NCBI GenBank assembly: GCA_963846575.1
Contig: CAWJWJ010000002.1
Span: 1,120,001 to 1,184,000, forward strand
Direction: 5' to 3'
Source of the DNA: an uncultured Nitrospiraceae bacterium
GTDB lineage: Bacteria; Nitrospirota; Nitrospiria; Nitrospirales; Nitrospiraceae
DNA length: 64,000 nucleotides
In this document: positions 23,719-46,341 of the stretch, piece after piece
Numbering within the stretch: position 1 is the first letter of the stretch
Layout of the letters: every line of letters begins with the position of its first letter
The notes under the pieces: generated by a model
The model's database searches: none
Told to the model about the DNA's origin: nothing
The model's input: the letters and a program-made list of their open reading frames with translations, nothing else
Translations under genes and position numbers: made by a program

Positions 23719-23734
23719 AGCAAGACGCGCACCC
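23719..23734 (-). promoter_or_regulatory. sigma-54 -24/-12 promoter candidate
   Basis: GGGTGCGCGTCTTGCT (GG-N10-GC). Confidence 0.6.
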
Positions 23735-23810
23735 TGGGAGCCGCACATGAATCAAGCGGGATATTATGGCGTTCTGCTTCACCTCTGCTTTCATGTTGCC
23801 ATCGTGCAGG

Positions 23811-23840
23811 GACAGCTTGTCTCCGGGCGGACAACCTGTC
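23811..23840. promoter_or_regulatory. tandem GACA-N3-TGTC activator site
   Basis: GACAGCTTGTC + GACAACCTGTC, 19-bp period. Confidence 0.7.
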
Positions 23841-23879
23841 GAGAGGAAGTTCCTGCATGCCTCTGCCCGGGGGCTTTAC

Positions 23880-24224
23880 CTAGTGTCCGACTGCTCCCGT
23901 GACTCCACCGCCACCCGATCCCGGCTCGAAGCGTTTCTCCGGGGATCCGCTTTCACTGCCCGAAGACTTGTCATCCTCATGCTTGGATTTGCGGCCGGTG
24001 ACTTGGTCGTCCGTGCCAGGCGTTCCTGATGGCCCGGGTTTCTTGCCGTTGTCAGGCTGCTTGGTCGCTCCATCGGACGAGCCGGGATGTTTCCGACTGT
24101 CTTCCATCACCCGGGGCGTCGGCCCTTTCTTCGACTCTGCCGCGCCCGATGGTGCGATGGGCAGACCGATGAAGCCACCGACGAGGAACGCGATCGTGAC
24201 GGTCAAACATGTCCTTCCCTTCAT
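23880..24224 (-). CDS. small exported low-complexity Gly/Ser/Lys-rich protein
   Basis: GGAGG RBS, signal peptide, polar tail. Confidence 0.65.
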   Translation of the reverse strand: MKGRTCLTVTIAFLVGGFIGLPIAPSGAAESKKGPTPRVMEDSRKHPGSSDGATKQPDNGKKPGPSGTPGTDDQVTGRKSKHEDDKSSGSESGSPEKRFEPGSGGGGVTGAVGH

Positions 24225-24311
24225 ACTTCCTCCCTGTTGGTTAGATCATCAGATATGCGGCGTTGTAGATCGCGGCGTGACCGCAAGACCACCGGCAGAC
24301 ATACGCTTGAT

Positions 24312-24611
24312 CTAGGGCGTTGGACGGTCGGGGCTCTCCCTGGAGTACCGCAGATGGAAACCGTCGAACGGCCTCTTGAACAGGCTTCGTACCACATAGG
24401 GCATGATCACAAAGGTGCAGAGCAACGTCACCAGCGTAATGGGAACAAACGCCACCCACAGCGGGGGTCCCGAACGCGTGAGTTCGGGGAAGAGGTACAA
24501 CAGCAGTCCATTCATGGCGAAGATGAGCAACATGAAGCTCCCGACGGTGCGCCAGAAGACCGCCCATCCGAGGGACAGCGACTCACGATAGGTCGGTTCG
24601 ACAGAGTGCAT
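24312..24611 (-). CDS. small two-TM membrane protein
   Basis: GGAGG RBS, two hydrophobic helices. Confidence 0.65.
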   Translation of the reverse strand: MHSVEPTYRESLSLGWAVFWRTVGSFMLLIFAMNGLLLYLFPELTRSGPPLWVAFVPITLVTLLCTFVIMPYVVRSLFKRPFDGFHLRYSRESPDRPTP

Positions 24612-24624
24612 GATGAGGTCCTCC

Positions 24625-26043
24625 CTACGGTGGCGGAACGGGGCTTGGCAAGGGCGGGGTCGGCCCCGGCAGGGGCGGTTCCGGTCGTGGATCAGGGGGA
24701 CGGGGGACGGGGTCCGTCGGTCCCGGCCCCGGCTTGGGCACCGGCGGGGGATCGGTCACGGTGCCGATAGGGACGGTCAGCCAGCCCGCCAATAGGAGCA
24801 GGAGTATTCCCCGAGCCGCTCGTGCGACGGTTGTATCCGGTTGACTGGTTTGCATAGGCGAGGCCATGGGTTCTGTCCTCTCTTCAGGAATGGCTTGCGG
24901 TGTCTGCTGATGTACAACGCGCCGCGCCTGTGAGACGTCCGCAGGGCGCGAGGCTCTGGCGACTGAGATAGGACTGTCCGCTACCGATGGAACAGGACGA
25001 TAATACAGGTCGAGCCAGGGGGCCATCTGAGCGCTCTTGTGCCGCGTCTGTTCCAGGCGAGCTAGAGCCAGCGAAGTCCATTTCACGAGTCTTTCCTCCC
25101 ATCGGGCCCACGCCGCCGTGTCCTTATTGGCGACCGTCATCAGCGTGTCGGGACGTATGCCCAAAGGAGCAAAACCGTGGCGGGCCATCAACCGGTTCAT
25201 GGTGGGCACCGTATATCCATACAAATAGGGAAAGCCCAGCAGATTGTTCCATGCCAGCGCCGCTGTGACCCATCCCTTCACCGGTTCCACGCATCGATGC
25301 TGCCAGGAGAGGAGCAGGCGGAATGCGGAGCCGTTCGGCACGCGGATGACCAATACGCCGTCCTCCCGCAACATCTGTCTCGCTGCCGCGAGCGTGGAGT
25401 CGGGATTCGGCAGTTGATCGAACGTATTCCAGATCGTCACGGCGTCGGCGGTCCCGGGTGCGACCGGGGCTTCCACGAGCGTGCCGGTAAAGACTTCCAG
25501 TTTCCGGTTCCGGCAGAAGGCAGCCACTTCCTTCCCCGGATCGACTCCCATCATCTTCCAGCCGCGTTCCCGGCCCGCCGCAAGAAAACCGCCGACAAAA
25601 CTGCCGACCTCGACGACAAAGGGCGCACTCGACGCATCCTCCCGCAGCCGGGCATCGAGCGCCTGCGCTTTGGACTGGGCCCATTCATGTTGGAGTGCGA
25701 ACTCCGACCGGAGGTGTTCTTCGCCATAACGGTCCGCGCTATAGGTTTCAGTGATGCTTCCTGCGGGAGGGCGCGGCGAACGACAGACTAATCCGCAGCC
25801 GCGACAGGCCACGATGTTGGTGCTGTACGATTGGGTGAATTCCGCACGGTCCTTCGGGGTCGACTCTTGCGGATGTTTCAAACGGCGGCGGTGAAAGCGG
25901 CGCAGATAGTCAAGCTGTTCGCGTAACTCCAGGGCGGAACAGAGCTCGTCTGCTTCAGATCCGCCACAGATATGACAAAAAAATCTGACGGAGACGACAG
26001 ATGGTTCCACCTTTGGATCCTCTGAAGTGTGAAGCATCGACAT
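24625..26043 (-). CDS. class I SAM methyltransferase with Zn-binding N-terminus, in frame with a TM + Pro-rich tail
   Basis: CHICGG...CRGCGL, VVEVGSFVGGF, GVLVIRVPN; internal RBS+ATG at 24867. Confidence 0.75.
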   Translation of the reverse strand: MSMLHTSEDPKVEPSVVSVRFFCHICGGSEADELCSALELREQLDYLRRFHRRRLKHPQESTPKDRAEFTQSYSTNIVACRGCGLVCRSPRPPAGSITETYSADRYGEEHLRSEFALQHEWAQSKAQALDARLREDASSAPFVVEVGSFVGGFLAAGRERGWKMMGVDPGKEVAAFCRNRKLEVFTGTLVEAPVAPGTADAVTIWNTFDQLPNPDSTLAAARQMLREDGVLVIRVPNGSAFRLLLSWQHRCVEPVKGWVTAALAWNNLLGFPYLYGYTVPTMNRLMARHGFAPLGIRPDTLMTVANKDTAAWARWEERLVKWTSLALARLEQTRHKSAQMAPWLDLYYRPVPSVADSPISVARASRPADVSQARRVVHQQTPQAIPEERTEPMASPMQTSQPDTTVARAARGILLLLLAGWLTVPIGTVTDPPPVPKPGPGPTDPVPRPPDPRPEPPLPGPTPPLPSPVPPP

Positions 26044-26065
26044 CGGTCGATCCTTCCGAAACTCG

Positions 26066-26830
26066 TTATGGCTCCACCACCGACGCATTGTCGGTGAGAA
26101 ACGGGTGATCCGTCAGGGCCTGATAGGCGACGGCCGCCGTGTGAATCGGAGACACCTGCATGAGAAACGGCGTGAACCAGTCCGAGTCCGCCACGTCGAA
26201 CGTGTCCGGGATGACCACCCGCCGGAGATGCTTGAGATAGGCCGCCTGGATTTTCAAGGGGACGGAGGTGACGGGGCCGATCGTCCCGTCCGCGGTAATG
26301 GTCCCGGTCATCGTTCTGTCCAAAGGGATAAAGTCTCCCTTCGCGAGCGCCACCACGGAGAGCCCGACGATGGCCGACAGACTGTCGCCATAGATGGTTC
26401 CGGCCGGTTCATGAACCGAGAGACTCACGGTCCATGAGTCAGTACGTAAACGTGCCGCATGTGCCGCGCGGTCGATAGCTGAGAGAATGGCGATCTCGGT
26501 GCCGGGGCTGAAGGACCCGCGTCCGGTGAGAAAACTCACCACGATGCCGTGGTGATCGGCGCGTCCTTCCCACCCTACGACCAGTTCGCCCACCGCGCCT
26601 TCCCGAGCGCGTTGCGATTCGACTTCCTCCACGATGGTGACACCCAGGAAGCGAATGATCTGCGCGCGTTGAGTTTCTGCCCGAACCGGTTGGGGCAGAA
26701 ATGAGACCAGTGAGAGGAGTGACAGGATGACGGCCAGCCCTAGAACCCACCACCGACTTGGCATCGCGGTTAGATGCTCCTGTTTATGAGATTGTCTGCA
26801 TCCTGCCAGAAGGGACTGCGCGTCCGACAC
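26066..26830 (-). CDS. stand-alone Lon/S16 protease domain with signal peptide
   Basis: GDSLSA and MTGTITADGTIGPVTSVPLKIQAA; Ser and Lys 43 residues apart; GGAGG RBS. Confidence 0.75.
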   Translation of the reverse strand: MSDAQSLLAGCRQSHKQEHLTAMPSRWWVLGLAVILSLLSLVSFLPQPVRAETQRAQIIRFLGVTIVEEVESQRAREGAVGELVVGWEGRADHHGIVVSFLTGRGSFSPGTEIAILSAIDRAAHAARLRTDSWTVSLSVHEPAGTIYGDSLSAIVGLSVVALAKGDFIPLDRTMTGTITADGTIGPVTSVPLKIQAAYLKHLRRVVIPDTFDVADSDWFTPFLMQVSPIHTAAVAYQALTDHPFLTDNASVVEP

Positions 26831-26971
26831 TAGGCACCTCCCTATATTGATAGGCGGCGAGGCCTGGTCCGTGGCCTGGTCTTAACACCGCGGTCGATCC
26901 GGACGCCGGATGGAGCGATCTAGCAGCTGGGAGGAGGGTGTAGGGGCCCGGGCCGGAGGATCAGGAAAGGG

Positions 26972-28825
26972 TCACGCCCGCCGGGTTCGTCGATGGAGGA
27001 TCCCTGCGAGGGCTCTCGGAAGCTCGGCGGATTCGAGTTCCTCGATGGTCGTGGGAAGAGCGAGCGACCAGTTGGGATAGTCTCCGGCCGACGACGGCAG
27101 ATTGGGACGTTCGTTCACTGCGCAGGCGGCCTCCAGTTCCGCGAGCACCACGGCGGAGGGTGCGTTCGACAGCTGTTCGAAGGTCTGCGTGATCGCGAGG
27201 GCGACATCAGCGCGGGGGTCGAGATCGCTCGTCTCCATGATCTTCTGCCTGAACTCATCCTGCGCGGCCTGATTCGGTGTCACCCCATGTGCCCGTTGCA
27301 CGTCGAGGTCCGCCCCGGTCCAGACACCGGCCAGGGTGGGCAAATCATGGGTGGTGACCGCGGCCAGCGCCTTCTCCGGATATTTTGACGGCGGCTGCTC
27401 CTCGAACCAGAGGAGACGGTAGGAGAGCACGTTCTGTTCAGCCAGCATCTCGCGCACGCCTTCTTCCACGGTTCCCAGATCTTCGCCGACCACGATGGCA
27501 TTGGCGCGCTGACTTTCCACGGCCAGGATCGCCAAAAGTTCCTGGGCGGGGTAGCGCACAAAGGCGCCGTCCTTGGGCTGGCAGCCCTGCGGCACCCACC
27601 AGAGTCGGAACAGGCCCATGACATGATCGATACGAATTCCTCCGGCATAACGGAGGATCGATCGAATCGTTTGTCTGAACGGCTCATAACCGGCCGAGCG
27701 GAGTTTATGCGGGATGAAGGGCGGCAGGCCCCAATCCTGGCCGGCCTTGTTATAGAGATCCGGAGGAGCCCCGACGGTCATGTCGGCTGCGATCAGGTCC
27801 TGCCACAACCAGGCGTCGGCTCCGTCCGGCGAAAATCCGATAGGGAGGTCCTGCATGATCGGCACTGAGCCGGCCGCCCGCTTCAATTGTTGATTGAGCA
27901 ACCACTGCAACCACATGTGAAACCGGACCCGCTCCGCCTCGGCGGAGGCGAACGCGGCGATGCCCGGGTGATCGGGGCGGCGATACTCCGAAGGCCACTC
28001 GCGCCAGTTCGCACCATGTTTCTCGGTCAGGCAACAGAAGAGGGCAAACTGCCGGAGGGAGTCGCCTTCCTGCCGTCGATAGAGGTCGAAGTCCGGGTCG
28101 CCATCGAACTGTGCCCAGAGGAGCTGCAGGGCCTCCTGTTTCAGCTGAAACACCCGGTCGCGGTCGATCCGGCGATCTTCGTTGAGGGCCTGTCCGAGGG
28201 CGGCGAGGCGAGTCATGTCCTGCCCGAGTCTCGCCGCTCCCGGGATTTCTTCGATCCGCAAATACAGCGGATTCAAAAAACGCCGGCTCGAAGGCGAGTA
28301 GGGACTGGCTTCCTGCGGCAGCAGCGGTTGAATCGCATGCAGGGGATTGATGAGGAACAGTCCTGCCCCCAGGCTCCCGGCCCAGGTCGTCAATCGGCGG
28401 AGATCGGCAAGATCCCCCATGCCCCAGCTTTCCCGGCTGCGGGTCGCATAGAGTTGCGCACTCCACCCCCAGATCCTCAGGTCGTCGGGCAGATGGCACC
28501 GGCCCGGTGTCACGATGAGGAGCACAGACGCGTCGGGATTTTCGTTGGCTGCGAGTCGGTGATATCCGATCGGCAGATCCTTCGGCAACCGGTTGGCCAC
28601 TTGTGTGGTGCTGCCGTCTTCGAGCGTCAATGTCGATGCCGTCTGGAGCCGCGGCGATTGGCCTTGTCTGATAATCTTGACGCGTTCTTCGCACCAGGAA
28701 GCGGCAGGGGGTGGAGGCGGTCCCATGGACTTCCTGATCCGTGCCTGCGCTTCTTGAGACACCCGGCGCTTCTTCCCGGCGGCATCTTCGTACGTGGTCT
28801 GAATTCCCCACAGGCTGGTCTTCAT
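26972..28825 (-). CDS. malQ: 4-alpha-glucanotransferase (GH77)
   Basis: SPYSPSSRRFLNP, QDLPIG, IRIDHVMGLFRLWW, VGEDLG, TTHDLPT. Confidence 0.93.
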   Translation of the reverse strand: MKTSLWGIQTTYEDAAGKKRRVSQEAQARIRKSMGPPPPPAASWCEERVKIIRQGQSPRLQTASTLTLEDGSTTQVANRLPKDLPIGYHRLAANENPDASVLLIVTPGRCHLPDDLRIWGWSAQLYATRSRESWGMGDLADLRRLTTWAGSLGAGLFLINPLHAIQPLLPQEASPYSPSSRRFLNPLYLRIEEIPGAARLGQDMTRLAALGQALNEDRRIDRDRVFQLKQEALQLLWAQFDGDPDFDLYRRQEGDSLRQFALFCCLTEKHGANWREWPSEYRRPDHPGIAAFASAEAERVRFHMWLQWLLNQQLKRAAGSVPIMQDLPIGFSPDGADAWLWQDLIAADMTVGAPPDLYNKAGQDWGLPPFIPHKLRSAGYEPFRQTIRSILRYAGGIRIDHVMGLFRLWWVPQGCQPKDGAFVRYPAQELLAILAVESQRANAIVVGEDLGTVEEGVREMLAEQNVLSYRLLWFEEQPPSKYPEKALAAVTTHDLPTLAGVWTGADLDVQRAHGVTPNQAAQDEFRQKIMETSDLDPRADVALAITQTFEQLSNAPSAVVLAELEAACAVNERPNLPSSAGDYPNWSLALPTTIEELESAELPRALAGILHRRTRRA

Positions 28826-31531: not shown

Positions 31532-31547
31532 TGGTGCATCATTTGCA
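31532..31547 (+). promoter_or_regulatory. sigma-54 promoter candidate for treZ
   Basis: TGGTGCATCATTTGCA. Confidence 0.65.
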
Positions 31548-31613: not shown

Positions 31614-33470
31614 ATGGGTTACATGCGACAGAGTTGTGGCGCGGTGCTCGCGGCTGATGGCGCGGTTGAATGGCGGCTGTGGGCCCCGAAAGCCAAACAG
31701 GTCGACCTCATCCTGATCGACGGGAGCCACCGGCACGTCGAATCGATGGTATCTGAACCTTGTGGACATTTTCTTTTTCGCCGGGAGAATGTGTCCGAGG
31801 GACAGCGCTACATGTTTTCGCTTGATGGGGGACCGGACAGAGCCGATCCGGCCTCCCGTTGGCAACCGGATGGAGTAGGCGGTCCCTCGGCATTGCTGCG
31901 CCCCGCGCGATTCGAATGGTCGGACAATCAGTGGCAGGGCGTTTCCCGCCAAGACCTCGTGTTTTACGAGGTGCATGTCGGGACCTTTACGGCAGAGGGC
32001 ACCTTCGAGGCCATCATTCCGAGACTGCCGGCTCTCCGGGAACTCGGCATCACTGCCGTGGAGTTAATGCCCGTGGGCCAGTTTCCCGGTTCGAGGAATT
32101 GGGGTTATGACGGGGTCTACCTGTATGCCCCTCAGCAGAGCTACGGGGGACCATCAGGATTGCAGCGACTCGTGGATGCCTGCCACCGCGAGGGCATGGC
32201 CTGTTTCCTTGACGTGGTCTATAACCACGTCGGTCCCGAGGGGAGTTACCTGTCGGAGTTCGGTCCATACTTCACCGACCACTATCGGACGCCCTGGGGT
32301 CATGCGGTCAATTACGACGGGCCGGGAAGTGAAGCCGTGCGGACCTTCGTCACAGACAACGTCCGCATGTGGATCCGGGACTACCACCTGGACGGCCTGA
32401 GGCTGGATGCGGTCCACGCAATCTATGACTTCGGCGCCCGGCACATTTTACAGGACATCAAGGAGGCGGCGGATCAGGCCGCGGAGGGACGCGGGTACGA
32501 GGCTCAGATCGTGGCGGAAAGCGATCTGAACGACGTGCGCCTCCTCCTACCGAAGGAGCGCGGCGGCTACGGTCTCGATGCGCAATGGAGTGACGATTTT
32601 CACCATACGGTCCACGCATTGTTGACCGGAGAGCGGCAGGGGTACTACGCGGACTATGGCGATCCGGAACAGCTCAGAAAGGTGCTCGACGACACCTTTG
32701 TTCTGGACGGCTGCTTCAGCCGGCATCGCGATCGCTGCCATGGGGCGCCGGTAGCCGGACTTCCGGGAGATCGATTCGCCGGATGCATTCAGAATCACGA
32801 TCAAATCGGCAACCGGGCCGTGGGTGAGCGGCTCGGGGTGCTCATTACCCCGCCGGCCCAACGGTTGGCCGCGACACTGCTGTTGCTGGCTCCGCATCTT
32901 CCTCTGCTCTTTATGGGGGAAGAGTATGGCGAAACCGCGCCGTTTCAGTTCTTCTGCTCCTTCGAAGGAGCGGAGTTGATTGAGGCGGTGCGCCAGGGCC
33001 GGAAGAGGGAATTCGAAGCCTTTCATGCGGAGGGTGTGGTGGCACCGGATCCCCAGTCGGAAGAGACCTTCGATCGCTCCCGTCTCAGCTGGCGCTGGCA
33101 GGACCAGCCGCACCGCGCCGGACTCAGACGGCTGTATGCAGAGTTGCTCGCGGCGAGACGGTCGTGCGCTCCGCTGCGAAACTTCTCCCAACGGGCGGCA
33201 ACGCTGCATCAAGGTCCTTCCGGTCCCGTCGTGCTGGAGCTGATTCGAGGGGGGACGAAGCCGGACGCCGACAAGACGGTCCAGGCTTTCTGCAATCTCA
33301 CGGCTGAACCGCAACGATTGCCGGCAGTGACTCCGCAGACGTTGCTGTTCAGCTCCGAGTCGACCCGTTTCGACGGGGGACGCACCTCGGCAGCGAGGCC
33401 GGAAGCGCTGCTTCCATTTGAGTGCCTGCTCTTCGGGTCGAGCGCTTCGAACTATCCGCGCGTGGAATAG
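31614..33470 (+). CDS. treZ: malto-oligosyltrehalose trehalohydrolase
   Basis: WGYDGV, DVVYNHVGPEG, GLRLDAVHAI, QNHDQIGNR, LFMGEEYG. Confidence 0.93.
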   Translation: MGYMRQSCGAVLAADGAVEWRLWAPKAKQVDLILIDGSHRHVESMVSEPCGHFLFRRENVSEGQRYMFSLDGGPDRADPASRWQPDGVGGPSALLRPARFEWSDNQWQGVSRQDLVFYEVHVGTFTAEGTFEAIIPRLPALRELGITAVELMPVGQFPGSRNWGYDGVYLYAPQQSYGGPSGLQRLVDACHREGMACFLDVVYNHVGPEGSYLSEFGPYFTDHYRTPWGHAVNYDGPGSEAVRTFVTDNVRMWIRDYHLDGLRLDAVHAIYDFGARHILQDIKEAADQAAEGRGYEAQIVAESDLNDVRLLLPKERGGYGLDAQWSDDFHHTVHALLTGERQGYYADYGDPEQLRKVLDDTFVLDGCFSRHRDRCHGAPVAGLPGDRFAGCIQNHDQIGNRAVGERLGVLITPPAQRLAATLLLLAPHLPLLFMGEEYGETAPFQFFCSFEGAELIEAVRQGRKREFEAFHAEGVVAPDPQSEETFDRSRLSWRWQDQPHRAGLRRLYAELLAARRSCAPLRNFSQRAATLHQGPSGPVVLELIRGGTKPDADKTVQAFCNLTAEPQRLPAVTPQTLLFSSESTRFDGGRTSAARPEALLPFECLLFGSSASNYPRVE

Positions 33471-36494: not shown

Positions 36495-36523
36495 GACAAC
36501 TTGTCGAGCGGAGACAGTTAGTC
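36495..36523. promoter_or_regulatory. tandem GACA-N3-TGTC activator site
   Basis: GACAACTTGTC + GACAGTTAGTC, 18-bp period. Confidence 0.65.
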
Positions 36524-36667: not shown

Positions 36668-36683
36668 AGGCCTGCCATTTGCA
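36668..36683 (+). promoter_or_regulatory. sigma-54 promoter candidate
   Basis: AGGCCTGCCATTTGCA. Confidence 0.6.
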
Positions 36684-36761: not shown

Positions 36762-37667
36762 ATGTTTTCTAAACGGTTTTCTAAACGACGGGCGGTGCAA
36801 TGCGTAGTGGTCTCGGGACTGGTATTTGGATCGGCAGTCACCGGCTTTACGCAATCGGCGGTGCCGGCTCAGGAGCAGCCAGTGGAAGTGGGACCGCGCA
36901 CAGGCGATCGAACCACTCAGGACCGGGTGGTCACGCGGGAACGCACCGGCGATCGGACGGTCGTGGAGGAACGGGTCGTGGAGCGGAGGAGAGAAGGGGA
37001 GGTCTACGTAGGAGGTTTCGGCGGCTTCACCTGGGGCCACAACTTTTCAGATGTGGAGGGGAGAGGAACCCTTGCCGGACAGTCGTTCGGAGGCCGTGAC
37101 CTGGCGAATTCCGGGGTGTACGGCGCGAAGATCGGATATTTCCATCCGGGCCGTCTGAACTGGCTGGGACTCGAAGTGGAAGGATTCAATTCGACCCCTC
37201 ATATTGAACAGGGTGGCGGCCTGCCCGGCGCCCATCTTCGGGTGACCACGCTCGCCTTTAATGCCATCGCCCGCACCAAGGTGGGGTGCCGGAATCGCGA
37301 CGACGTCCGCCGCGGGGATGTCGTTCATCGGGACGGCACGGTGCATGACGCCGACCACGACCGGACCCATTGGTCGGCGCTTGATGACAATCTACGTTGC
37401 CCCCTTCAGCTGTATGCGGGAGCGGGCCCCGGCATCTTTTTCGCCGAAACATCGAATCAGTTCGGCCGCAGCACCGATAACGGACGCATCGGCTTGAATG
37501 CATTGGCCGGCGTGAAATATTTCATGACCCGTAATCTGTCTGTCTATGCCGAATACAAGTTTAACTATGCTCAATTTGACTTTACCCAGATTCAAGGCAC
37601 CACGGCAGGGTTGACCGGTGACTACATGGCAAGCCATGTGGTCGGCGGCTTGGCCATGCACTTCTAG
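36762..37667 (+). CDS. outer-membrane beta-barrel protein
   Basis: GGAGG RBS, signal peptide, GAKIGYF, YAEYKFNY, terminal Phe. Confidence 0.82.
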   Translation: MFSKRFSKRRAVQCVVVSGLVFGSAVTGFTQSAVPAQEQPVEVGPRTGDRTTQDRVVTRERTGDRTVVEERVVERRREGEVYVGGFGGFTWGHNFSDVEGRGTLAGQSFGGRDLANSGVYGAKIGYFHPGRLNWLGLEVEGFNSTPHIEQGGGLPGAHLRVTTLAFNAIARTKVGCRNRDDVRRGDVVHRDGTVHDADHDRTHWSALDDNLRCPLQLYAGAGPGIFFAETSNQFGRSTDNGRIGLNALAGVKYFMTRNLSVYAEYKFNYAQFDFTQIQGTTAGLTGDYMASHVVGGLAMHF

Positions 37668-38134: not shown

Positions 38135-38500
38135 TCAGCCGGAGGAGGCTTTGGGTTTCCGCGAAGGTGAGGCGGATGAGGCCGGCCCGGTTCTGCCGAA
38201 GAGGCGGCGCAACTCGTCTTTGGCGCGGTCCAACCGCTCCCGCTGGACGGCCGTGAGGTTTTTCCCCGCGCGGTTCATGTGAAAATTGAGCATGGACATG
38301 GCCGATTGAAACGCGGTGCCTTTTCTCCGGCGGCTCAGTTCGGCTGAGCGTTTGAGAGAGGCCGCAATCTTCTGAGCGCTTCGTTGGGTAAAGACGCCTT
38401 CTTCGAGGTCCAGGGCGTCACTGTTCTGCGTAACCGCGGCTGACCATTTTTTCGGTTTCTTGTTCTGTGTGCCGGCTGAGGACTTTGCCATCCGTGCCAT
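38135..38500 (-). CDS. DUF3175 family protein
   Basis: WSAAVTQNSDALDLEEGVF, SAMSMLNFHMNRAGKNL. Confidence 0.85.
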   Translation of the reverse strand: MARMAKSSAGTQNKKPKKWSAAVTQNSDALDLEEGVFTQRSAQKIAASLKRSAELSRRRKGTAFQSAMSMLNFHMNRAGKNLTAVQRERLDRAKDELRRLFGRTGPASSASPSRKPKASSG

Positions 38501-38567
38501 CGACAATCCTTCCTTTCGCCATCGCAGGGTGAACGTCCACTCGATTCCCTTGCGCCTGCCTGAGGGC

Positions 38568-39578
38568 TCACGACCGGCGGGAGAGGTTCTTAATCATGAG
38601 ACCCGCCCCGAGCAGAGCCATTCCCGTCAGGACGGGATGGAGTGAAGCCGTCGTGTACAGACTGGATTCCGCGACGTGTCCCTGGTATTCGCCCCGTTCC
38701 TGCAGATCTCCCGACGGGCGGTCCAGGGCATTATCCCGGCGCGGCCTGGCAGGGGGACGATCCGATTGTTGCTGCCGGACCAAGAAGGATTCCATCAGTA
38801 GATCGGCCAGCCGCGGGGCGTAATACCCCAGCATCCCCATCCCTTTTCCTCCCGCCCCGACGAAGACATGCCGTTCAGGGCTCTCGGCGCAATGCAGGAT
38901 CGTCCTCGCCACGATGTCCGGCGCATAGACGGGCGGCGGATTGGTCGGTTCACTGTTCATGTAGTTCTTGGCGTGGCGCGAGTAGGGTGTGTCGATCGCA
39001 CCCGGTTGAATCAGGGTGACGGAGGTGGGGATCCGGTCCATCTCGAGTTCCATGCGTAACGCGTCGGTAAATCCCTTGACCGCATGTTTCGAGGCGGAGT
39101 AGATCCCCTGCAGAATCAGGGCGCGCTCGGAGAGCGTGCTTCCCACATTGATGATCGCGCTGGGCTGCAGGCGTTCCTTGAAATGCCGCGCCGCTTCCAA
39201 AGAGCCGTACACGAGGCCCCAGAAATTGGTTTCGAAGAGCCGCCGCATATCTTCGATCGGTTCATCGAGCAGCTTCCCGTAGATCGACACCCCGGCATTG
39301 TTCACCCAGGTGTCGAAGCCGCCGAACTTCTGTCGCGCGACTCGAGAGATCCGTTGAACGTCGGCGGGTTTTCCCACATCCGCGGTCACGGTCACGGCCC
39401 GCCGGTCCCCGTCGGAGAGTTCGCGATCGAGTTCCAGCAGGGCTGCATCGCTCCGTGCGGCGAGGACGAGGCGGGCTCCGGCCCGGCGTGCCATGCGGGC
39501 CGTCACGAGACCGATACCCGAAGAGGCGCCGGTAATGACGATGACTTGATCGCGGAGTTTTTTTAGACGCCTGGCCAT
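38568..39578 (-). CDS. short-chain dehydrogenase/reductase
   Basis: TGASSGIG, NNAG, YSASK. Confidence 0.92.
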   Translation of the reverse strand: MARRLKKLRDQVIVITGASSGIGLVTARMARRAGARLVLAARSDAALLELDRELSDGDRRAVTVTADVGKPADVQRISRVARQKFGGFDTWVNNAGVSIYGKLLDEPIEDMRRLFETNFWGLVYGSLEAARHFKERLQPSAIINVGSTLSERALILQGIYSASKHAVKGFTDALRMELEMDRIPTSVTLIQPGAIDTPYSRHAKNYMNSEPTNPPPVYAPDIVARTILHCAESPERHVFVGAGGKGMGMLGYYAPRLADLLMESFLVRQQQSDRPPARPRRDNALDRPSGDLQERGEYQGHVAESSLYTTASLHPVLTGMALLGAGLMIKNLSRRS

Positions 39579-39862: not shown

Positions 39863-39892
39863 GACGAATTGTCCTGACCGGCACGTCCTGTC
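39863..39892. promoter_or_regulatory. tandem GACA-N3-TGTC-like activator site
   Basis: GACGAATTGTC + CACGTCCTGTC, 19-bp period. Confidence 0.6.
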
Positions 39893-39982: not shown

Positions 39983-41503
39983 TCATACTACGGCTGTGTG
40001 ATGTTGGTGCAGGTCACGAATGTCCACTCTCAGACGCGTGCGGCCAGTCCGACAGTTGTCGCATCGTCCGCAGTCCCTGCTGATCTCGCGGGAGAAGTAT
40101 CTGGTCAGGAACCGCACGCGGCAGTCGGTGGTTTGTCCGTACTTCATCATGGCCGCAAGACGACTTTCGTCCTGCCGATGCCGTTGGTCGTACTCTTCGA
40201 GATACAGGGCAAACTCGGACTCGTCACGAAATGCGCGCCGGCAAAGAAACCGGCGGCCTGTCGGCTCCACAATTCCGGCCCGCTCCAGGAGGGCGAGAAT
40301 CACACGGAGGCGACGCGGCGCAATGCCGGTGGTCTTGTGCAGGGATGCGACCGATCGCGGGCCCTGGTGGTCTTGGAATGACGCATCCCCCTGCAACGCG
40401 TGATAGACGCGGGCGCATTCCGCCTGCCGCGGATACTTTCCTCGTAAAAAATATGCCTGCACCCGCCGGTCCTCCAGCCGATACATGAGCGCCGCGAGCG
40501 CCGGTTGACCGTCTCTTCCCGCCCGGCCTGCCTCCTGAACATAACTCTCCAGGGAGTCTGGAAAGGCGTAGTGAATGACGAATCGAAGATCGGGCTTGTC
40601 GATGCCTAATCCGAAAGCCTTTGTGGCGACGATGACCCGGTAGCGATCCCGCATGAAGGCTTGCTGCGTAGACCGGCGCTCAATCAGTGTCATCCTGCCG
40701 TGATACTGACCGGCGGGGAGGCCTGCCCGGACAAGGCGCGCATACAACTCATCGGCTTGTCGAATGGTGGCTACATAGACGATTCCCGTCGCGTCGCCCT
40801 GTTCCTTCACGATCTGCAGGAGGCGCGCGAACTTCTCCTCTTCGTTGGGCGTGGCATAGACCTCGTACCTGAGGCTGGGCCGGTCTATCCCGTGATTGAC
40901 CACGAGGGCGTCGGGAATAGCCAGTTGGGTCAGGATGTCGGAGACCACCGCCGGGGTGGCGGTGGCCGTCAGGGCCAGCACCGGTGGGTGATCCAAGCTG
41001 TGTATGGCGTCGCGGATAGCCAGATAGGCCGGTCGAAAATCGTGTCCCCACTGAGAAATGCAATGGGCCTCATCCACGACGACCAGCGAGACGCCGCTCT
41101 CTCGAAGGAGATTCACATAGTCGGGCTGCTCCAGGCGTTCCGGAGTGACGTAGATCATTTCCGGTAGTTGATGGGTGATATCCCGCAGACATTGCCGTTC
41201 CTCCGGTGCCGTCAGGGTGCTGTTGATCACGGCAACCGGGATCTGTCGTCCCCTGAGTTTGTCTTCCTGATCCTGCATCAAGGAGATCAACGGGGAGATG
41301 ACGAGGACGGCACGGGGCAGAAACAAAGAAGGCAGTTGAAAGCAGAGTGATTTCCCGCCGCCGGTCGGCAGGATGCCGACCGCATCACGTCCGCTCAGGA
41401 CGGCCTCAATCAGCCGGCGTTGACCGGGGCGATAGGTCCTGACGCCGAGCAGGCGTTGCGCTTTACGCTCGTTTGCCGGCGACCACTTCCAGGCGGCGTT
41501 CAT
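39983..41503 (-). CDS. RecQ-family ATP-dependent DNA helicase, short form without HRDC
   Basis: PTGGGKSLCFQ, DEAHCISQWGHDFRP, QEAGRAGRDG, CGRCDNC. Confidence 0.92.
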   Translation of the reverse strand: MNAAWKWSPANERKAQRLLGVRTYRPGQRRLIEAVLSGRDAVGILPTGGGKSLCFQLPSLFLPRAVLVISPLISLMQDQEDKLRGRQIPVAVINSTLTAPEERQCLRDITHQLPEMIYVTPERLEQPDYVNLLRESGVSLVVVDEAHCISQWGHDFRPAYLAIRDAIHSLDHPPVLALTATATPAVVSDILTQLAIPDALVVNHGIDRPSLRYEVYATPNEEEKFARLLQIVKEQGDATGIVYVATIRQADELYARLVRAGLPAGQYHGRMTLIERRSTQQAFMRDRYRVIVATKAFGLGIDKPDLRFVIHYAFPDSLESYVQEAGRAGRDGQPALAALMYRLEDRRVQAYFLRGKYPRQAECARVYHALQGDASFQDHQGPRSVASLHKTTGIAPRRLRVILALLERAGIVEPTGRRFLCRRAFRDESEFALYLEEYDQRHRQDESRLAAMMKYGQTTDCRVRFLTRYFSREISRDCGRCDNCRTGRTRLRVDIRDLHQHHTAVV

Positions 41504-41534
41504 GCGCGTGGACGGTCGCCGGCTTCAGAACTTC

Positions 41535-42332
41535 TCATCGGGACGCCGATGCGGTCGATTCCATGGTCTCTTTGAATCGCTCCAGATCACTCGCAATCTT
41601 TCGGCCCGGGTCCTGTCCGAACAATCCGGCAATGGCTGCTCCGATAGGACCGGCGGGCGGGTCATATTGAAGGGTGACCGTGACCCTGCAGCTACGCCCC
41701 CCTTCGACCGGTTCGAAGTGCACGGATCCGGCATGACCCACCATCGCCCCCTGGAGGGTCCGCCACCCGATCCGCTCGTTCTCCACCTCGTTGATGATCT
41801 CCGCGTCCCATTCCACTGTGGGGGCCCCGGGGACCGTGTCGATCACCCAATGGGATTTGCGATCGTTGAGGGTCTTCACGCTCCGTACCTGGCTCATCAC
41901 GGTCGAAAGGTTCTCCAGGTTCCTCCAGAATGCATACAGATCCTTTGCCGGCCGGGCGATCACAATCGACTCCTCGATCTTGAGCGCGCGCCTGCTGTGT
42001 ATTTTCCTCCGTCCCAAGGAAGACGTGTCGGTCTTATCCCTGGTGCTGACGCCCATGCTGTGATAGGCCGGACAAAATCCGGTGAGCGCACGATACAGGA
42101 GGGTGACACCGAGCATGGCGCCCACTCCGGTGATCGGTGACAAGGGGCGTGTGACGGTCCGGAGCAACAGACCTCCCCCGACCAATCCGGAAATGACCCG
42201 TTCGGTTTCGCCCACGTTCGACTGCGCCTCGTCGCCCTGTTCGTTTTTCCATTCCTCGTTCCGCAAGTCTTGTCCGTTGTGTGCGGGTCTCGCCTTTGGC
42301 GTTGTCCTGATACCGCCGCGCATATGTGCCAT
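41535..42332 (-). CDS. SRPBCC/cyclase-dehydrase family protein with N-terminal DUF2892-like TM hairpin
   Basis: NVGETER, TGFCPAY, LYAFWRNLENL, EWDAEI, DLERFK. Confidence 0.88.
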   Translation of the reverse strand: MAHMRGGIRTTPKARPAHNGQDLRNEEWKNEQGDEAQSNVGETERVISGLVGGGLLLRTVTRPLSPITGVGAMLGVTLLYRALTGFCPAYHSMGVSTRDKTDTSSLGRRKIHSRRALKIEESIVIARPAKDLYAFWRNLENLSTVMSQVRSVKTLNDRKSHWVIDTVPGAPTVEWDAEIINEVENERIGWRTLQGAMVGHAGSVHFEPVEGGRSCRVTVTLQYDPPAGPIGAAIAGLFGQDPGRKIASDLERFKETMESTASASR

Positions 42333-42445: not shown

Positions 42446-42461
42446 TGCAAGTGTGGGGCCA
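42446..42461 (-). promoter_or_regulatory. sigma-54 promoter candidate
   Basis: TGGCCCCACACTTGCA. Confidence 0.68.
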
Positions 42462-42567: not shown

Positions 42568-42597
42568 GACCGATTGTCTTACGCGGGACAAATTGTC
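42568..42597. promoter_or_regulatory. tandem GACA-N3-TGTC activator site between divergent promoters
   Basis: GACCGATTGTC + GACAAATTGTC, 19-bp period. Confidence 0.7.
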
Positions 42598-42665
42598 TGA
42601 GGGGCTCCGGCAGAGTTCCATCCGTAAGTCTTGGTGACTGATGCACTTTTCGTAGACCATGCGAC

Positions 42666-42681
42666 TGGTTGATCCTTTGCA
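42666..42681 (+). promoter_or_regulatory. sigma-54 promoter candidate
   Basis: TGGTTGATCCTTTGCA. Confidence 0.62.
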
Positions 42682-42741
42682 TACGCCACGACAGACAAGA
42701 GAGCGGTGTGCCCAACTCTACGTCAGCTCAGGAGGTCCCTC

Positions 42742-43086
42742 ATGGCAGATAAGAGCGTCAAGAAGGTTACGTCGGACTATTCGCCGAACGGCAGGATGGG
42801 ACAGAAGTATCTTGCTTCAGGCATCAACGTCTCGATGCGGCTGTGGGAATCTTTGCCTCCCGCGCCGCCGACGCCGCAAAAGAAGCGGGACTATGAGGTC
42901 GTCGGGTATGTCATTCAGGGACGGGCCAAGCTGGAGCTCGAAGGGCAGACCATCCTGCTGGAGCCGGGGGATTCCTGGGTCGTTCCCCAACAGGCGACTC
43001 ACCGTTATGAAATCCTCGAACCATTCACCGCGGTCGAGGCGACGACCCCTCCGGCCCAGGTGCACGGGCGGGACGAAGGAGACTGA
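42742..43086 (+). CDS. cupin domain protein
   Basis: AGGAGG RBS; YEVVGYVIQGRA, LEPGDSWVVP, HRY. Confidence 0.88.
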   Translation: MADKSVKKVTSDYSPNGRMGQKYLASGINVSMRLWESLPPAPPTPQKKRDYEVVGYVIQGRAKLELEGQTILLEPGDSWVVPQQATHRYEILEPFTAVEATTPPAQVHGRDEGD

Positions 43087-43154
43087 GACCGGGCCACGCA
43101 CCTGTCGCGCACCCGTTGACCGGGAAACATGGTACGGGGGTGCCGGGTCGGGAG

Positions 43155-43979
43155 TTATTTGGAATTGGGGACCGGAAGCGGAGCCCCGGGGTCATGGGGG
43201 TCGTGCCAGAGGGCAATCCCGCCCAAAAGCCCGTTGAGATTTGAGACGATCGTGACATTTCCGGGAAGCCGGCTGATATCGACTTGCGCCGCATTCCCGC
43301 CGCCGATATAAAGGCGCTCGTAATGGAACATCCGTTCGAGTTTGGTGACGGCCTTGACCAGGCGGTTGTTCCACAGTTTCTTGCCGAGCCGTTCGAACTC
43401 CTCATTCCGGAGCCGGTTCTTCCCGACTTCCACGTTCGGTATCAGCCTCCCGTCCACGAAGAGAGCCGAGCCGACCCCCGTGCCCAATGTGAGCACCAAC
43501 TCGACGCCCTTGCCCGAGATAGCCCCGAACCCCTGGATGTCCGCATCGTTCGCCGCACGAACCGGTTTTTTGCGGAACATTTTGCTGAGGGCCTTCGTGA
43601 GGTGGAAATGGTCCCAGGCGGGGTCCAGATTCGGCGCCCCTGATACCACTCCGTTCCGGACAATGCCCGGGAATCCCACGCTCGCCCGATGGAATTTCCC
43701 GGCTTGTTTTGCCAGGACTTTAATCGTTTTAAGAACATTTTCCGGATTTTTTGGTTCCGGAGTCGGGAGCCGTTGACGCTCGCCGATTGGCTCCCCGATT
43801 TCGTTGACGACCATCACTTTGATTCCCGTCCCGCCGATGTCGATGACCAGCGTCCTGATCGGCTCATGCTCCGGGGGAGCGGGCGCCGCGGTGGCAGCTT
43901 GCGAGGCTGCTGACGTCTTTGAGTTCTTGGAGGGTGGGGATGTTTTCGGAGACCGTGACTTCGCTTTAGTAGTGGCCAT
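43155..43979 (-). CDS. ROK-family sugar kinase (polyphosphate glucokinase-like)
   Basis: IDIGGTGIK, VGFPG, NDAD, LTLGTGVGSA, IGGG. Confidence 0.85.
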   Translation of the reverse strand: MATTKAKSRSPKTSPPSKNSKTSAASQAATAAPAPPEHEPIRTLVIDIGGTGIKVMVVNEIGEPIGERQRLPTPEPKNPENVLKTIKVLAKQAGKFHRASVGFPGIVRNGVVSGAPNLDPAWDHFHLTKALSKMFRKKPVRAANDADIQGFGAISGKGVELVLTLGTGVGSALFVDGRLIPNVEVGKNRLRNEEFERLGKKLWNNRLVKAVTKLERMFHYERLYIGGGNAAQVDISRLPGNVTIVSNLNGLLGGIALWHDPHDPGAPLPVPNSK

Positions 43980-44207
43980 GCTGTATTTATCACCCGTTGA
44001 GAAGACCTGTCGATTGTTCCGGATATATGCTTAGGCACACGAGGCCGCAGCGGTGGCGACTATACCAGAATAGGGTGTTATCCGCACCTGTTCTACCCGG
44101 AAGAGCGTCGCCTGCCATGATTGTTCGTGGAGGCAGGCGGACGAGGCGCATGGCCCGCGACGCAAGGCCGTGAGGGGTCACGAATCCCCCTCGCTCTCCG
44201 CCTGCGT

Positions 44208-44561
44208 TCAATTTCCTTTGTCTGCTCCGGTCTTCCCCGTCGTGCCGCCCTTATGGGAATCCTTGGTGGAGTCCGATCCGGCCGGCTGAGACTTGCCATC
44301 CCGCGCTGCAGGCGGTTCCGCTTGATGAGGGTCTCTCACGGCTCCGGTGCCCGACCCGCTCTGGTCGTTGCGGCCGGTATGTTCGCCGGTATTGCCGCCG
44401 CGAGGCGTGGTGATCGACCCGTCCTTTCCTTGCACCGTGCCGGGGCCGGTCGATTGTTTCGGGTCATAGGCCGAAGCCGGGGCAATGGTCGCAAGTGCCA
44501 TAGTCAAGAGCGCGCCAGCGGTAAACGAGAGGCGTATTTTGGTGCCTGCTTCTTGTGTCAT
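44208..44561 (-). CDS. small exported low-complexity Gly/Thr/Ser-rich protein
   Basis: AGGAGG RBS, signal peptide ending ASA. Confidence 0.65.
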   Translation of the reverse strand: MTQEAGTKIRLSFTAGALLTMALATIAPASAYDPKQSTGPGTVQGKDGSITTPRGGNTGEHTGRNDQSGSGTGAVRDPHQAEPPAARDGKSQPAGSDSTKDSHKGGTTGKTGADKGN

Positions 44562-44691
44562 GTCGATCCTCCTGCAGTTACGTGCGTTGTGAAATGAAAG
44601 GATTCTTGATTGTGTGTGTTATCTGCTCCGACCGGTTTTCGTCTTCAGATGAAGATACCGAAACCTGAAGGCTTGAGCGAGCCACTGAAAC

Positions 44692-45543
44692 TCAGCCATT
44701 CACGATCGTCCCGCCGTTGGGATGCAGCACCTGCCCGGTCATGTAGGACGAGTCGTCCGAAGCCAGGAAGAGATAGCAGGGCGCGACTTCCTCCGGCTGG
44801 CCAGCCCGTTTCAAAGGCACCTGCGATCCGAAGGTCTCGACCTTCTCGGTCGGGAACGTGGAAGGGATGAGCGGGGTCCAGATCGGACCCGGCGCCACCG
44901 CATTGACCCTGATTTTTTTATCCGCCAGGGCCTGGGACAGGGATCGGGTAAAGGACACGATGGCCCCCTTGGTCGATGAGTAGTCCAGGAGATGCCAGCT
45001 TCCCTTATAGGCAGTCACCGACGTCGTATTGATGATGGCGGCCCCTTCCGGCAGGTGGGGGAGCGCTGCCTGGGTCATATAGAAGAATGAAAAGATGTTC
45101 GTCCGGAAGGTTCGCTCCAGCTGGTCGGGAGAAATCTTCGTAATGCTGTCTTGTGGATGCTGCTCCGCGGCATTGTTCACCAGGATGTCCAGGTGTCCGA
45201 ACTCCTTCAGGGTGCGATCCACGCCTTCCATGCAAAAGTCGGCGGCTCCGACATCCCCTGCCAGGGCCAGGCAGCGGCGCCCCTCTTTTTCCACCAGGCC
45301 TACCGTCTCCTTGGCATCCCCGTGCTCGTTCAAATAGAGGATGGAAACATCCGCGCCCTCTCTCGCAAACGCGATGGCCACGGCGCGGCCGATCCCGCTG
45401 TCTCCACCGGTCACGATCGCGACCTTCCCCGCCAATTTGCCGGTGCCGCGGTGCTGGGGATCGTCGGATCGAGGGGCGGGGGTCATTTCAGATTCAAGCC
45501 CCGGGCGTCGATGTTGCTGTTGGGCCGGTTGTTGTGTTGCCAT
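44692..45543 (-). CDS. SDR oxidoreductase, general stress protein 39/YhdF-like
   Basis: TGGDSGIGRA, NNAAEQH, YSSTK, APGPIWTPLIP. Confidence 0.92.
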   Translation of the reverse strand: MATQQPAQQQHRRPGLESEMTPAPRSDDPQHRGTGKLAGKVAIVTGGDSGIGRAVAIAFAREGADVSILYLNEHGDAKETVGLVEKEGRRCLALAGDVGAADFCMEGVDRTLKEFGHLDILVNNAAEQHPQDSITKISPDQLERTFRTNIFSFFYMTQAALPHLPEGAAIINTTSVTAYKGSWHLLDYSSTKGAIVSFTRSLSQALADKKIRVNAVAPGPIWTPLIPSTFPTEKVETFGSQVPLKRAGQPEEVAPCYLFLASDDSSYMTGQVLHPNGGTIVNG

Positions 45544-45668
45544 ACGCCAGACACTCCTGTTGCTTCGGCACGAGCAGGGCCCGCGCCAGTCCTTGCCGTA
45601 CGAACTGCTGCTCGTTGAACGGCGCCTCGATCGCCGTTGTGACGCGTAGTGCTGAAAGGCACACCGTC

Positions 45669-45712
45669 CAGAGAGGGCAGGGGACGAACAGACTTCGTGC
45701 CCTGCCTCTCTG
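45669..45712. terminator. long intergenic stem-loop
   Basis: cagagagggcaggggacgaa / ttcgtgccctgcctctctg imperfect inverted repeat. Confidence 0.45.
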
Positions 45713-45735
45713 TTCGGCGAAGCGGTCAGAGGCTG

Positions 45736-46095
45736 CTATTTGCCTCCCCCGCCACTTCCACCGGACGACTGCCCGCCGCCTGAAGACGAGTGCCCGCCTC
45801 CTGACGTAGAAGCTCCGTGCGCACCTGAGTTACCGCCCGATCCCGTGTTGTCATGTCCCGAGCCGGTGCCTTTGTTGGAGCCGGAGCCGGATGACATCGG
45901 TTTTCCGTCCTTGTCGTAGTTCCACCCGCTGCCCGGGACGCCCTTGCCGCCCTTGGAGTCCGATTCACCCTGCTTCCCCTCAGTGACGCTGGGCGATGTG
46001 CCGCCGCTGGAATGCTGAGCCACGGCAGGCAATCCTGCGAATGCGATGAGTCCCCCCGCGAGGCAGGCGACCTTGAATGCTTGCACGGTCTTCAT
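45736..46095 (-). CDS. small exported Gly/Ser-rich protein
   Basis: AAGGAGG RBS, signal peptide ending AVA, Gly/Ser tail. Confidence 0.7.
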   Translation of the reverse strand: MKTVQAFKVACLAGGLIAFAGLPAVAQHSSGGTSPSVTEGKQGESDSKGGKGVPGSGWNYDKDGKPMSSGSGSNKGTGSGHDNTGSGGNSGAHGASTSGGGHSSSGGGQSSGGSGGGGK

Positions 46096-46155
46096 TGCGC
46101 TCCTCCTTCGTGAAGTGAGTGAACTGGTGGTTTAGCCAGTGACGCTGACTACCTC

Positions 46156-46171
46156 TGCAAAAGAAAGGCCT
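46156..46171 (-). promoter_or_regulatory. sigma-54 promoter candidate
   Basis: AGGCCTTTCTTTTGCA. Confidence 0.6.
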
Positions 46172-46311
46172 CGCCGCTGTCCAACGTCATCCGGGCAGTT
46201 CGGCGGACAAAGGCCAGCTAACCCTACGTATTACCTCCATCCATGGCCGTTTCAGGGAATTGTCGGTTGGGCGTGAGGGTGGGTGCGGGTCCGGCCACGC
46301 GGTGAAACGAA

Positions 46312-46341
46312 GACAGGATGTCTCGTGCAGGACAGTCTATC
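46312..46341. promoter_or_regulatory. tandem GACA-N3-TGTC activator site
   Basis: GACAGGATGTC + GACAGTCTATC, 19-bp period. Confidence 0.68.

Follow-up and report, generated by a model that had tools for sequence, protein, structure and literature searches.

Paired GACA-N3-TGTC palindromes upstream of sigma-54-type promoters in Nitrospira: a candidate activator and a stress-type gene set

Which regulator, if any, joins the genes for trehalose synthesis, short-chain dehydrogenases, a RecQ helicase and small exported proteins that lie together in one region of a Nitrospira genome? The question is raised by a 64,000-nucleotide stretch of DNA (hereafter the window) from an uncultured Nitrospiraceae bacterium, corresponding to C2:1120001-1184000 of a 4.2-Mb genome in two contigs (C1 and C2); the host genome is a Nitrospira, the relatives of its proteins being labelled Nitrospira or Nitrospirota. 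Six intergenic regions of the window carry the palindrome GACA-N3-TGTC as a tandem pair, near elements of the sigma-54 promoter type, and an earlier reading of the window (the original prediction) held that one activator works from all of these sites. Taken as a whole, the comparative sequence evidence suggests that a single NtrC-type activator, bound to the paired palindromes, probably drives a sigma-54-dependent, stress-type gene set.

The paired palindromes and their promoters

All six predicted pairs are present in the window, including the one with an 18-bp period at 36495/36513:

23811..23840: pair 1, two GACA-N3-TGTC units at period 19, 0 mismatches to the 16 defined bases, 33.2 bits
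31428..31457: pair 2, between katE and treZ, outer left half degenerate, 3 mismatches, 20.5 bits
36495..36523: pair 3, period 18 (a form often seen in the family), 24.7 bits
39863..39892: pair 4, 3 mismatches, two of them within an inner half, 23.1 bits
42568..42597: pair 5, 1 mismatch, two divergent promoters served, 34.1 bits
46312..46341: pair 6, 1 mismatch, 33.0 bits

Seven GG-N8-TTGC elements also exist and face the genes that had been named, the earlier coordinates falling one base outside the GG..GC span. The predicted spacing of about 70-145 bp was measured, from pair end to GG, as 69-145 bp:

23720..23733 (-): sigma-54-type element at 77 bp from pair 1, with GG and TTGC unchanged in 6/6 aligned promoters
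31533..31546 (+): sigma-54-type element, 75 bp from pair 2, 6/6 aligned promoters
36669..36682 (+): sigma-54-type element, 145 bp from pair 3, 16.4 bits
39775..39788 (-): sigma-54-type element, 74 bp from pair 4, 11.3 bits, with a second candidate at 134 bp
42447..42460 (-): sigma-54-type element, 107 bp from pair 5 (107-111 bp in orthologues)
42667..42680 (+): weak sigma-54-type element, 69 bp from pair 5, 7.2 bits, the layout being repeated in one relative (L086)
46157..46170 (-): sigma-54-type element, 141 bp from pair 6, 18.8 bits, 6/6 aligned promoters

The pair at 39863 and the cupin promoter (the 7.2-bit element) are the weakest elements in the window. Transcripts from the seven elements would be expected to begin near 23709, 31557, 36693, 39764, 42436, 42691 and 46146 (plus or minus 2).

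Pairs with a 19-bp period and at most one mismatch occur four times in the genome, three of them in the window, and the other spacings between 11 and 40 bp give 0-1 each. Site matrices were trained only on sites from relatives (50 sites), with this genome held out; nine genome sites then score at least 20 bits, namely the six window pairs and C2:1417306, C1:144714 and C2:2565806. The window contains six such matches, compared with none in 99 of 100 third-order Markov copies and one in the remaining copy, and six column-shuffled matrices find 0-1 genome-wide, compared with seven for the real 19-bp matrix. A promoter scoring at least 9 lies within 55-175 bp of eight of the nine top sites, a background value for this being 3.2% of 5000 random positions. 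The original prediction had proposed among its checks a matrix scan against shuffled controls, co-occurrence of the pair with sigma-54 sites and the presence of rpoN. The pair proved to be well above chance by the Markov, shuffled-matrix and spacing comparisons, the eight sites with promoters bear out the co-occurrence, and profile search of the genome located rpoN at C2:586782 (PF04552, 190 bits). Weaker candidate sites lie at C2:1581751, before a third SRPBCC gene, and at C1:374775. The 18-bp pair at C2:2565806 precedes a small exported protein and is kept in about 14 genomes of the genus; its -12 element is non-canonical.

Across genomes, a search for the 19-bp pattern that allowed up to one mismatch detected it in 16 of 36 from the same genus and in none of 24 from the order's other families, and a reversed-pattern control gave 0 matches in all 61 genomes. 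The cultured Nitrospira moscoviensis M-1 is among the organisms with a record (L204) that has an exact pair with a promoter, and in 40 further loci from relatives 55 of 69 pairs have one. Alignment of five orthologous promoter groups left 12-15 of 16 pair columns invariant, compared with 2-7 of 197 in the remaining DNA, a figure that is partly circular for the pair because the loci were picked for it. The promoter half is not circular: GG and TTGC are invariant in 6/6 sequences in four of the five groups, the fifth (SRPBCC) having one misaligned row and GG lost in two rows. Positions that were not selected for also fit the sigma-54 consensus TGGCACG-N4-TTGC(T/A) given in PMC9765219, with a pyrimidine after GG in 65/67 and A/T after TTGC in 63/67 elements, many of them orthologues. 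Helical phasing of the distances between pair and GG (R=0.35 near 11 bp, nominal p ~0.001, 53 hand-picked values) is only suggestive, as orthologues are among the 53 values and the period was scanned.

The idea that chance palindromes happen to stand beside chance GG-N10-GC matches in GC-rich intergenic DNA has a vanishingly small probability, since the Markov, shuffled-matrix, reversed-pattern and spacing controls and the conserved footprints oppose it and have already refuted it for the pair, even with 2904 occurrences of GG-N8-TTGC in the genome and a promoter matrix that by itself is not enriched. The features expected of a sigma-54 regulon are found together here: rpoN, facing GG-N10-GC elements, tandem sites at 45-175 bp and a co-occurring AAA+ activator. 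The paired element very probably acts as a sigma-54 enhancer.

A candidate activator and its probable binding site

The original prediction placed the activator outside the window, and none of the 23 full sigma-54 activator domains of the genome is in fact encoded there. The candidate lies 270 kb away, at C2:1414880-1416241, and is a 453-residue protein with receiver, AAA and helix-turn-helix (HTH) domains. Nearby, the held-out site C2:1417306 sits between two divergent promoters, one facing SPW, dehydrogenase, SRPBCC, zinc-dehydrogenase and HAD genes and the other facing an exported-protein gene that converges on the activator gene. Walker A and B are intact and the loop reads GSFTGA; each of the 39 aligned orthologues has GSFTGA or GAFTGA at this position, and the recognition helix does not vary across the family. 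The protein scores below the NCBIfam equivalog cut-offs for AtoC (463/714), NtrC (421/559), ZraR (413/760) and GlrR (347/763), and among proteins of solved structure those of the NtrC family and ZraR are closest to it.

Within the genus, the last 77 residues of the activator were matched in 22 of 36 genomes. A relaxed pattern, with two mismatches and two extra half-defined bases that were added after the scan with at most one mismatch had been seen, finds a pair in 25 of the 36: in all 22 activator-positive genomes and in 3 of the 14 negative ones (one pair each), the control for this pattern giving 2 single matches. The corresponding Fisher p of 6e-7 is overstated by kinship. The one site left in each of the three activator-negative exceptions seems to be in decay: G013 and G035 have an altered -24 GG, and in G019 and G035 the ROK and 389-residue protein genes are split, though assembly error is possible there. 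The SRPBCC target was found in none of five activator-negative genomes, by a search without a positive control genome, and treZ-like genes persist in three of the five at 43-51% identity. The two are also linked: in 21 of 23 genus genomes, about 1.1 kb separates the activator's end from a pair. Several relatives have orthologues of window genes (YflT, ROK, SRPBCC, the 389-residue protein and a short-chain dehydrogenase) on the flanks of the activator.

A similar distribution is seen in the other genera of the family, for which 80 genomes were searched of 102 drawn. An orthologue of the activator (E <=1e-19, paralogues being at 1e-12 or weaker) is present in 28 of the 80. The activator-positive genomes have a pair in 23/28 and two or more in 20/28 (118 sites), and the negative ones in 10/52 and 2/52, with 8 single matches in the 80 genomes for the pattern control. 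Pairs of the 18-bp form occur in four of the five activator-positive genomes that lack 19-bp pairs, and G063, a multi-pair genome scored as negative, has the front half of the activator at a contig end. A pair stands within about 100 bp of the activator's stop in 7 of 19 loci of these genera, its predicted targets there being a single-domain receiver gene or other genes. A search of 125 genomes from 23 other families of the phylum did not find the activator. These distributions suggest an accessory module in which the activator, its sites and at least some of its targets are acquired and lost as a unit. The predicted role of one activator behind the pairs thus gains support, the protein at C2:1414880-1416241 both co-varying with the pairs and being linked to them, and its assignment is likely. 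In this genome no pair occurs upstream of the activator gene (best 5.1 bits), which rejects autoregulation here, and none occurs near the gene for an RpoS-like sigma factor; there is therefore no sign of a cascade from the activator to that factor.

It is improbable that the palindromes are instead read by another protein, be it a different one of the 23 enhancer-binding proteins or a TetR, BlaI/CopY or small winged-helix repressor, with the candidate simply riding on the same island: linkage between the candidate and pairs is seen in several distinct gene orders, even though a second activator (C2:942792) adjoins the island in several relatives, TetR proteins stand beside 40 of at least 119 exact matches, PetR has a GACA-N3-TGTC motif (bioRxiv 10.1101/2020.07.31.226407) and profiling covered only 2 of the 23 activators. 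The second activator was rejected: its orthologue is found in 29 of the 36 genus genomes, 9 of the 11 pair-negative ones among them, and is missing from 5 that are pair-positive (Fisher p=1.0). The small winged-helix family was rejected as sole binder because it is present in 35 of 36 genus genomes, a TetR binder because the relevant TetR family has no tblastn match in this genome, and a BlaI/CopY (PetR-type) binder because PF03965 is absent from it. The pairs also lie 45-175 bp upstream of the promoter element and not over the core promoter, as an operator of the PetR or TetR kind would.

The TetR counts come from an exact-pattern scan of 185,579 genomes, which gave at least 119 loci, one of them a duplicate. 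Among the matches listed, 27 loci are Nitrospira-titled and 24 of these have a sigma-54-type element; 40 are beside one TetR family, and 2 of these have such an element. The original prediction did not recognise the motif from a described regulator; the palindrome as such has other users, as it is also the extended PetR motif in cyanobacteria and the apparent operator of a TetR family in Actinomycetota.

Other users of the pattern are diverse. The TetR family of Actinomycetota and Chloroflexia (L104, L108, L110 and 37 more) is accompanied by tandem GACA-N3-TGTC at period 19, often three in a row, beside monooxygenase-like genes and without sigma-54 promoters; this is an apparent operator, seemingly reached independently. 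YheO-like PAS-HTH genes of Gammaproteobacteria (L113, L135, L140), with an exact pair at the 5' end and divergent from a DSD1-like/racemase gene, are a third unrelated user. In Alpha- and Betaproteobacteria and one Gemmatimonadetes genome, exact pairs lie beside kinase-activator pairs or formate-dehydrogenase-like genes (L145, L162, L165, L156, L164, L168, L153); four of these seven loci have a sigma-54-type element 67-79 bp away, and the HTH is only distantly like that of Nitrospira. A Pyrinomonadaceae locus (L111:773-995) has five to six copies of the pair at steps of about 58-77 bp before an open reading frame (ORF) of 422 codons, an array that looks like iterons or a transposon end. The winged-helix-like family (window 48465-48965 (+); L003:6006-6437) has no Pfam match and five paralogues in this genome, and is present at 1-7 copies in the genus genomes that have it, often adjoining the activator locus.

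The anatomy of the site bears on how the activator would be bound. The 713 kb of sequence surrounding activator orthologues contains 89 perfect GACA-N3-TGTC palindromes, compared with 5-12 for inner gaps of 1-2 and 4-7 bp, and the partner periods of the perfect palindromes are 19 (48), 21 (10), 20 (6) and 18 (2). One complete genome (G112, L266-L273) combines 18 pairs of the 18-bp form with 8 of the 19-bp form and encodes two activator paralogues, which may have different period preferences; a conserved 18-bp site is orthologous to C2:2565806. Because the inner gap is fixed at 3 bp and the period varies from 18 to 21 bp, a parse into two palindromes with a slightly elastic period is favoured, and the two-palindrome description first given for the window fits better than a central dimer. 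That the dimer site is a central TGTC-N8-GACA of NifA- or GlrR-like geometry, with the outer halves as accessory contacts, is unlikely. Far better preservation of the inner halves (4 mismatches, compared with 64 in the outer halves, in 50 promoter-linked sites that include many orthologues), the TGTC-N10-GACA sites of GlrR (PMC3045617) and the TGT/ACA half-sites 9-12 bp apart that are common among Desulfovibrio activators (PMC4641369) would all suit this geometry, but the central gap varies from 7 to 10 while the palindrome's own gap does not, and the genome with 18 pairs of the 18-bp form argues in the same direction.

With the two-palindrome parse, two activator dimers would bind the two 11-13-bp palindromes at period 19 (also 18-21). 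The bound dimers would serve as the seed of the AAA ring. Looping would bring the activator into contact with sigma-54 RNA polymerase at the -24/-12 elements, 45-175 bp away, and its ATP hydrolysis would open the promoter, so that genes whose content predicts a general-stress-type response are switched on.

The likely phospho-donor of the activator would be, in most other genera, the membrane histidine kinase encoded upstream, which precedes the activator in 16 of 19 loci outside the genus. A methyltransferase gene, alone or with a Lon-domain gene, is found just upstream of the kinase-activator genes in other genera (L246, L250, L252, L255, L256, L257, L265), and the same two genes remain in this window at 24625-26830. 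The kinase was found in none of 25 genus genomes (one query, 43 candidates scored per genome), its best tblastn matches in this genome being at 28-41%. The acidic pocket of the receiver drifts in the genus from DDD to DSN, DRN, DNN and EDH, with the phospho-aspartate and lysine kept in all rows covering them. Given this missing kinase and drifted pocket, the input in this genus is therefore likely to be another kinase or partly independent of phosphorylation.

Predicted target genes and the stress label

The gene labels of the original prediction are borne out by Pfam and NCBIfam. The genes behind the six pairs, which are predicted targets, and two neighbouring gene groups are as follows:

22447..23616 (-): target, 389-residue exported protein with no Pfam family, from a Nitrospirota cluster, with a pair in orthologues too
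31614..33470 (+): target, treZ, malto-oligosyltrehalose trehalohydrolase (TIGR02402, 698 bits, cut-off 539)
36762..37667 (+): target, outer-membrane beta-barrel protein (PF13505), probable ATG at 36762
38135..39578 (-): targets, short-chain dehydrogenase and DUF3175 protein
39983..42332 (-): targets, SRPBCC protein (polyketide cyclase fold, YgaP-like helix) and RecQ helicase
42742..43086 (+): target, cupin, probable ATG at 42742
43155..46095 (-): targets, two small exported low-complexity proteins, a short-chain dehydrogenase and a ROK/polyphosphate-glucokinase-like protein, presumably co-transcribed
46597..47746 (-): YflT-like and DUF6335 genes, with pair and promoter in relatives and none found here
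24625..26830 (-): Lon C-terminal-domain protein and methyltransferase

Orthologues of the beta-barrel gene adjoin a pair in three relatives (L076, L081, L091), with GG-N8-TTGC absent within 200 bp. These genes belong to a stress-type island at 22.4-48 kb of the window, defined by Pfam and NCBIfam matches, that includes malQ, a large catalase, treZ, hemerythrin, CBS, beta-barrel, DUF3175 and two short-chain dehydrogenase genes, together with genes for RecQ, SRPBCC, cupin, ROK, YflT-like and DUF6335 proteins.

Scanning of 45 first genes behind pairs across the family adds catalase, Ku, YtxH, DUF326 (2), DUF3309, DUF2630, hemerythrin (2), PRC-barrel (2), transglycosylase-associated, DksA-like, DUF6335 (2), dehydrogenase and glycosyltransferase genes. 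An otsA gene follows a pair in L151, and catalase is a predicted direct target in another genus, unlike katE here. Such gene families are typical of SigB, RpoS and EcfG regulons, and breadth of this kind is typical of general stress. The set covers broad protective functions, as expected of a general stress response. Its conserved promoter element is of the -24/-12 type and not that of a sigma-70-family factor such as RpoS, SigB or EcfG, though additional sigma-70-type promoters may be present. Of the sigma-54-wired general stress response that had been predicted, the sigma-54 element stands; the general-stress label is plausible, but it is drawn from gene content only, and an RpoS-like sigma factor is also present. 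No sigma factor in the genome exceeds the SigB/F/G cut-off, and several extracytoplasmic function factors are present.

A less likely alternative accepts the sigma-54 enhancer and the activator as real and has them answer one specific signal, such as low oxygen, an envelope or osmotic change, or entry into a biofilm or dormancy, beside an RpoS-like general stress response. It would accommodate the RpoS-like sigma factor, the many targets that are small exported proteins, a beta-barrel or glycosyltransferases (which suit the idea that sigma-54 controls the exterior of the cell; PMC3162934), the occurrence of cydA, hemerythrin and a kinase with a PAS-like segment in the loci, and the lack of the module in about half of the family. 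Against it, the predicted targets range over trehalose synthesis, catalase, Ku, RecQ, SRPBCC, YflT and YtxH proteins and several dehydrogenases, as is usual in general stress regulons, and no pair lies near the RpoS-like gene. The fuller proposal, that Nitrospira has a general stress response run by sigma-54 and one dedicated enhancer-binding protein, as an accessory module lost by about half of the family and rewired in this genus to do without the ancestral kinase, is put forward tentatively.

Several observations weigh against a single activator that drives one stress regulon. For the site, the promoter matrix alone shows no enrichment over a reversed-sequence control, so the promoters are significant only jointly with the pair and by conservation; the consensus T before GG is kept in only 12/67 elements; and the identical 30-bp pattern also serves unrelated regulators whose sites lack sigma-54 promoters. 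For the activator, the genomes are related and the co-occurrence counts therefore overstate independence, co-occurrence was profiled for 2 of the 23 enhancer-binding proteins, and the candidate could track the pairs merely by sharing an island with its neighbours. Single genomes also depart from the pattern: G118 (91% complete) has seven pairs, with neither activator nor kinase found, G068 has the activator and no pair, and G036 has a single 19-bp match that is inside a long ORF, lacks a promoter and is probably due to chance. For the stress label, 21 of the 45 first genes have no Pfam family, many of them with signal-peptide-like starts, and katE was rejected as a direct target in the window, having no fitting promoter. 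The strong pair and promoter at C1:144714 face genes for a DehI-like protein and an alpha/beta hydrolase, with no obvious stress genes. Finally, the RpoS-like sigma factor scores 327.9 bits against an RpoS cut-off of 378.7, and with it in the genome sigma-54 need not replace it.

Some further features of the DNA stand apart from the pairs. An 18.5-bit sigma-54-type element without a pair lies at window position 52532 (+), about 470 bp before a NiFe hydrogenase cluster (53003-57814). At 58040-60364 (+), a phosphoenolpyruvate synthase/pyruvate-phosphate dikinase gene is split over three ORFs, of which the first two overlap but differ in frame; this reflects either a frameshift or an assembly error. 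An identical 18-bp sequence occurs at 6335 and 7397 (-), about 1 kb apart, and is possibly a short repeat element. The genome also has two NxrA-sized molybdoenzyme ORFs that score below the family cut-off.

Comparison with known regulatory systems

Nitrospira are nitrite oxidisers and complete ammonia oxidisers of soils, aquifers and treatment plants. For them the analysis yields a named candidate activator, its probable site, a likely kinase and dozens of predicted targets, many of them functionally uncharacterised. If the general-stress reading is true, it would add a fourth wiring to those of RpoS, SigB and EcfG, and the module would single out those nitrite oxidisers and comammox strains able to withstand drying, salt, oxidants and starvation; its patchy presence would then be a genomic predictor of nitrifier stress survival. 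No account of the motif with sigma-54, or of a Nitrospira sigma-54 regulon, was found in a literature search that left subscription journals largely uncovered.

With RpoS, SigB and EcfG/RpoE2, the Nitrospira set shares trehalose synthesis, a large catalase, Ku, short-chain dehydrogenases, YflT, YtxH, SRPBCC and small exported proteins. They differ in being sigma-70-family factors released by proteolysis or partner switching, whereas the Nitrospira genes have sigma-54-type promoters and a dedicated enhancer. PMC3162934 and PMC6180224 give RpoS, SigB and EcfG/RpoE2 general-stress roles, the RpoE2 need for trehalose synthesis appearing in a reference title.

The sigma-54 regulome of Desulfovibrio vulgaris is similar in having many activators, each with its own motif, as worked out by comparative genomics, and its description labels one activator 'general stress response' and lists GSFTGA as a working loop variant (PMC4641369). 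DVU3305 differs in having two local target operons; it was compared by text only, and the part of that text at hand has no 'GACA' (PMC4641369). PetR, of the BlaI/CopY family, resembles the present system in the extended petE motif of cyanobacteria, GACA-N3-TGTC, but is a winged-helix repressor/activator of four genes that uses a single site over a -10/-35 promoter (bioRxiv 10.1101/2020.07.31.226407). GlrR/QseF at glmY and glmZ of Enterobacteriaceae shares the receiver-AAA-HTH architecture, the TGTC/GACA letters and several sites more than 100 bp upstream of a sigma-54 promoter (PMC3045617). Its sites are TGTC-N10-GACA and its targets are small RNAs (PMC3045617), whereas the Nitrospira unit is GACA-N3-TGTC at a period of 18-21.

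Among enhancer-binding proteins with a suggested general-stress role, the closest precedent is Nla28 of Myxococcus xanthus, which likewise acts on tandem short sites at the sigma-54 promoters of a multi-locus regulon and has been suggested as part of a starvation-induced general stress response (PMC9765219). Nla28 recognises CT(C/G)CG(C/G)AG half-sites, its promoters are mostly intragenic and its targets are mostly regulatory or developmental (PMC9765219); in the Nitrospira set, by contrast, intergenic palindrome pairs front the protective enzymes themselves.

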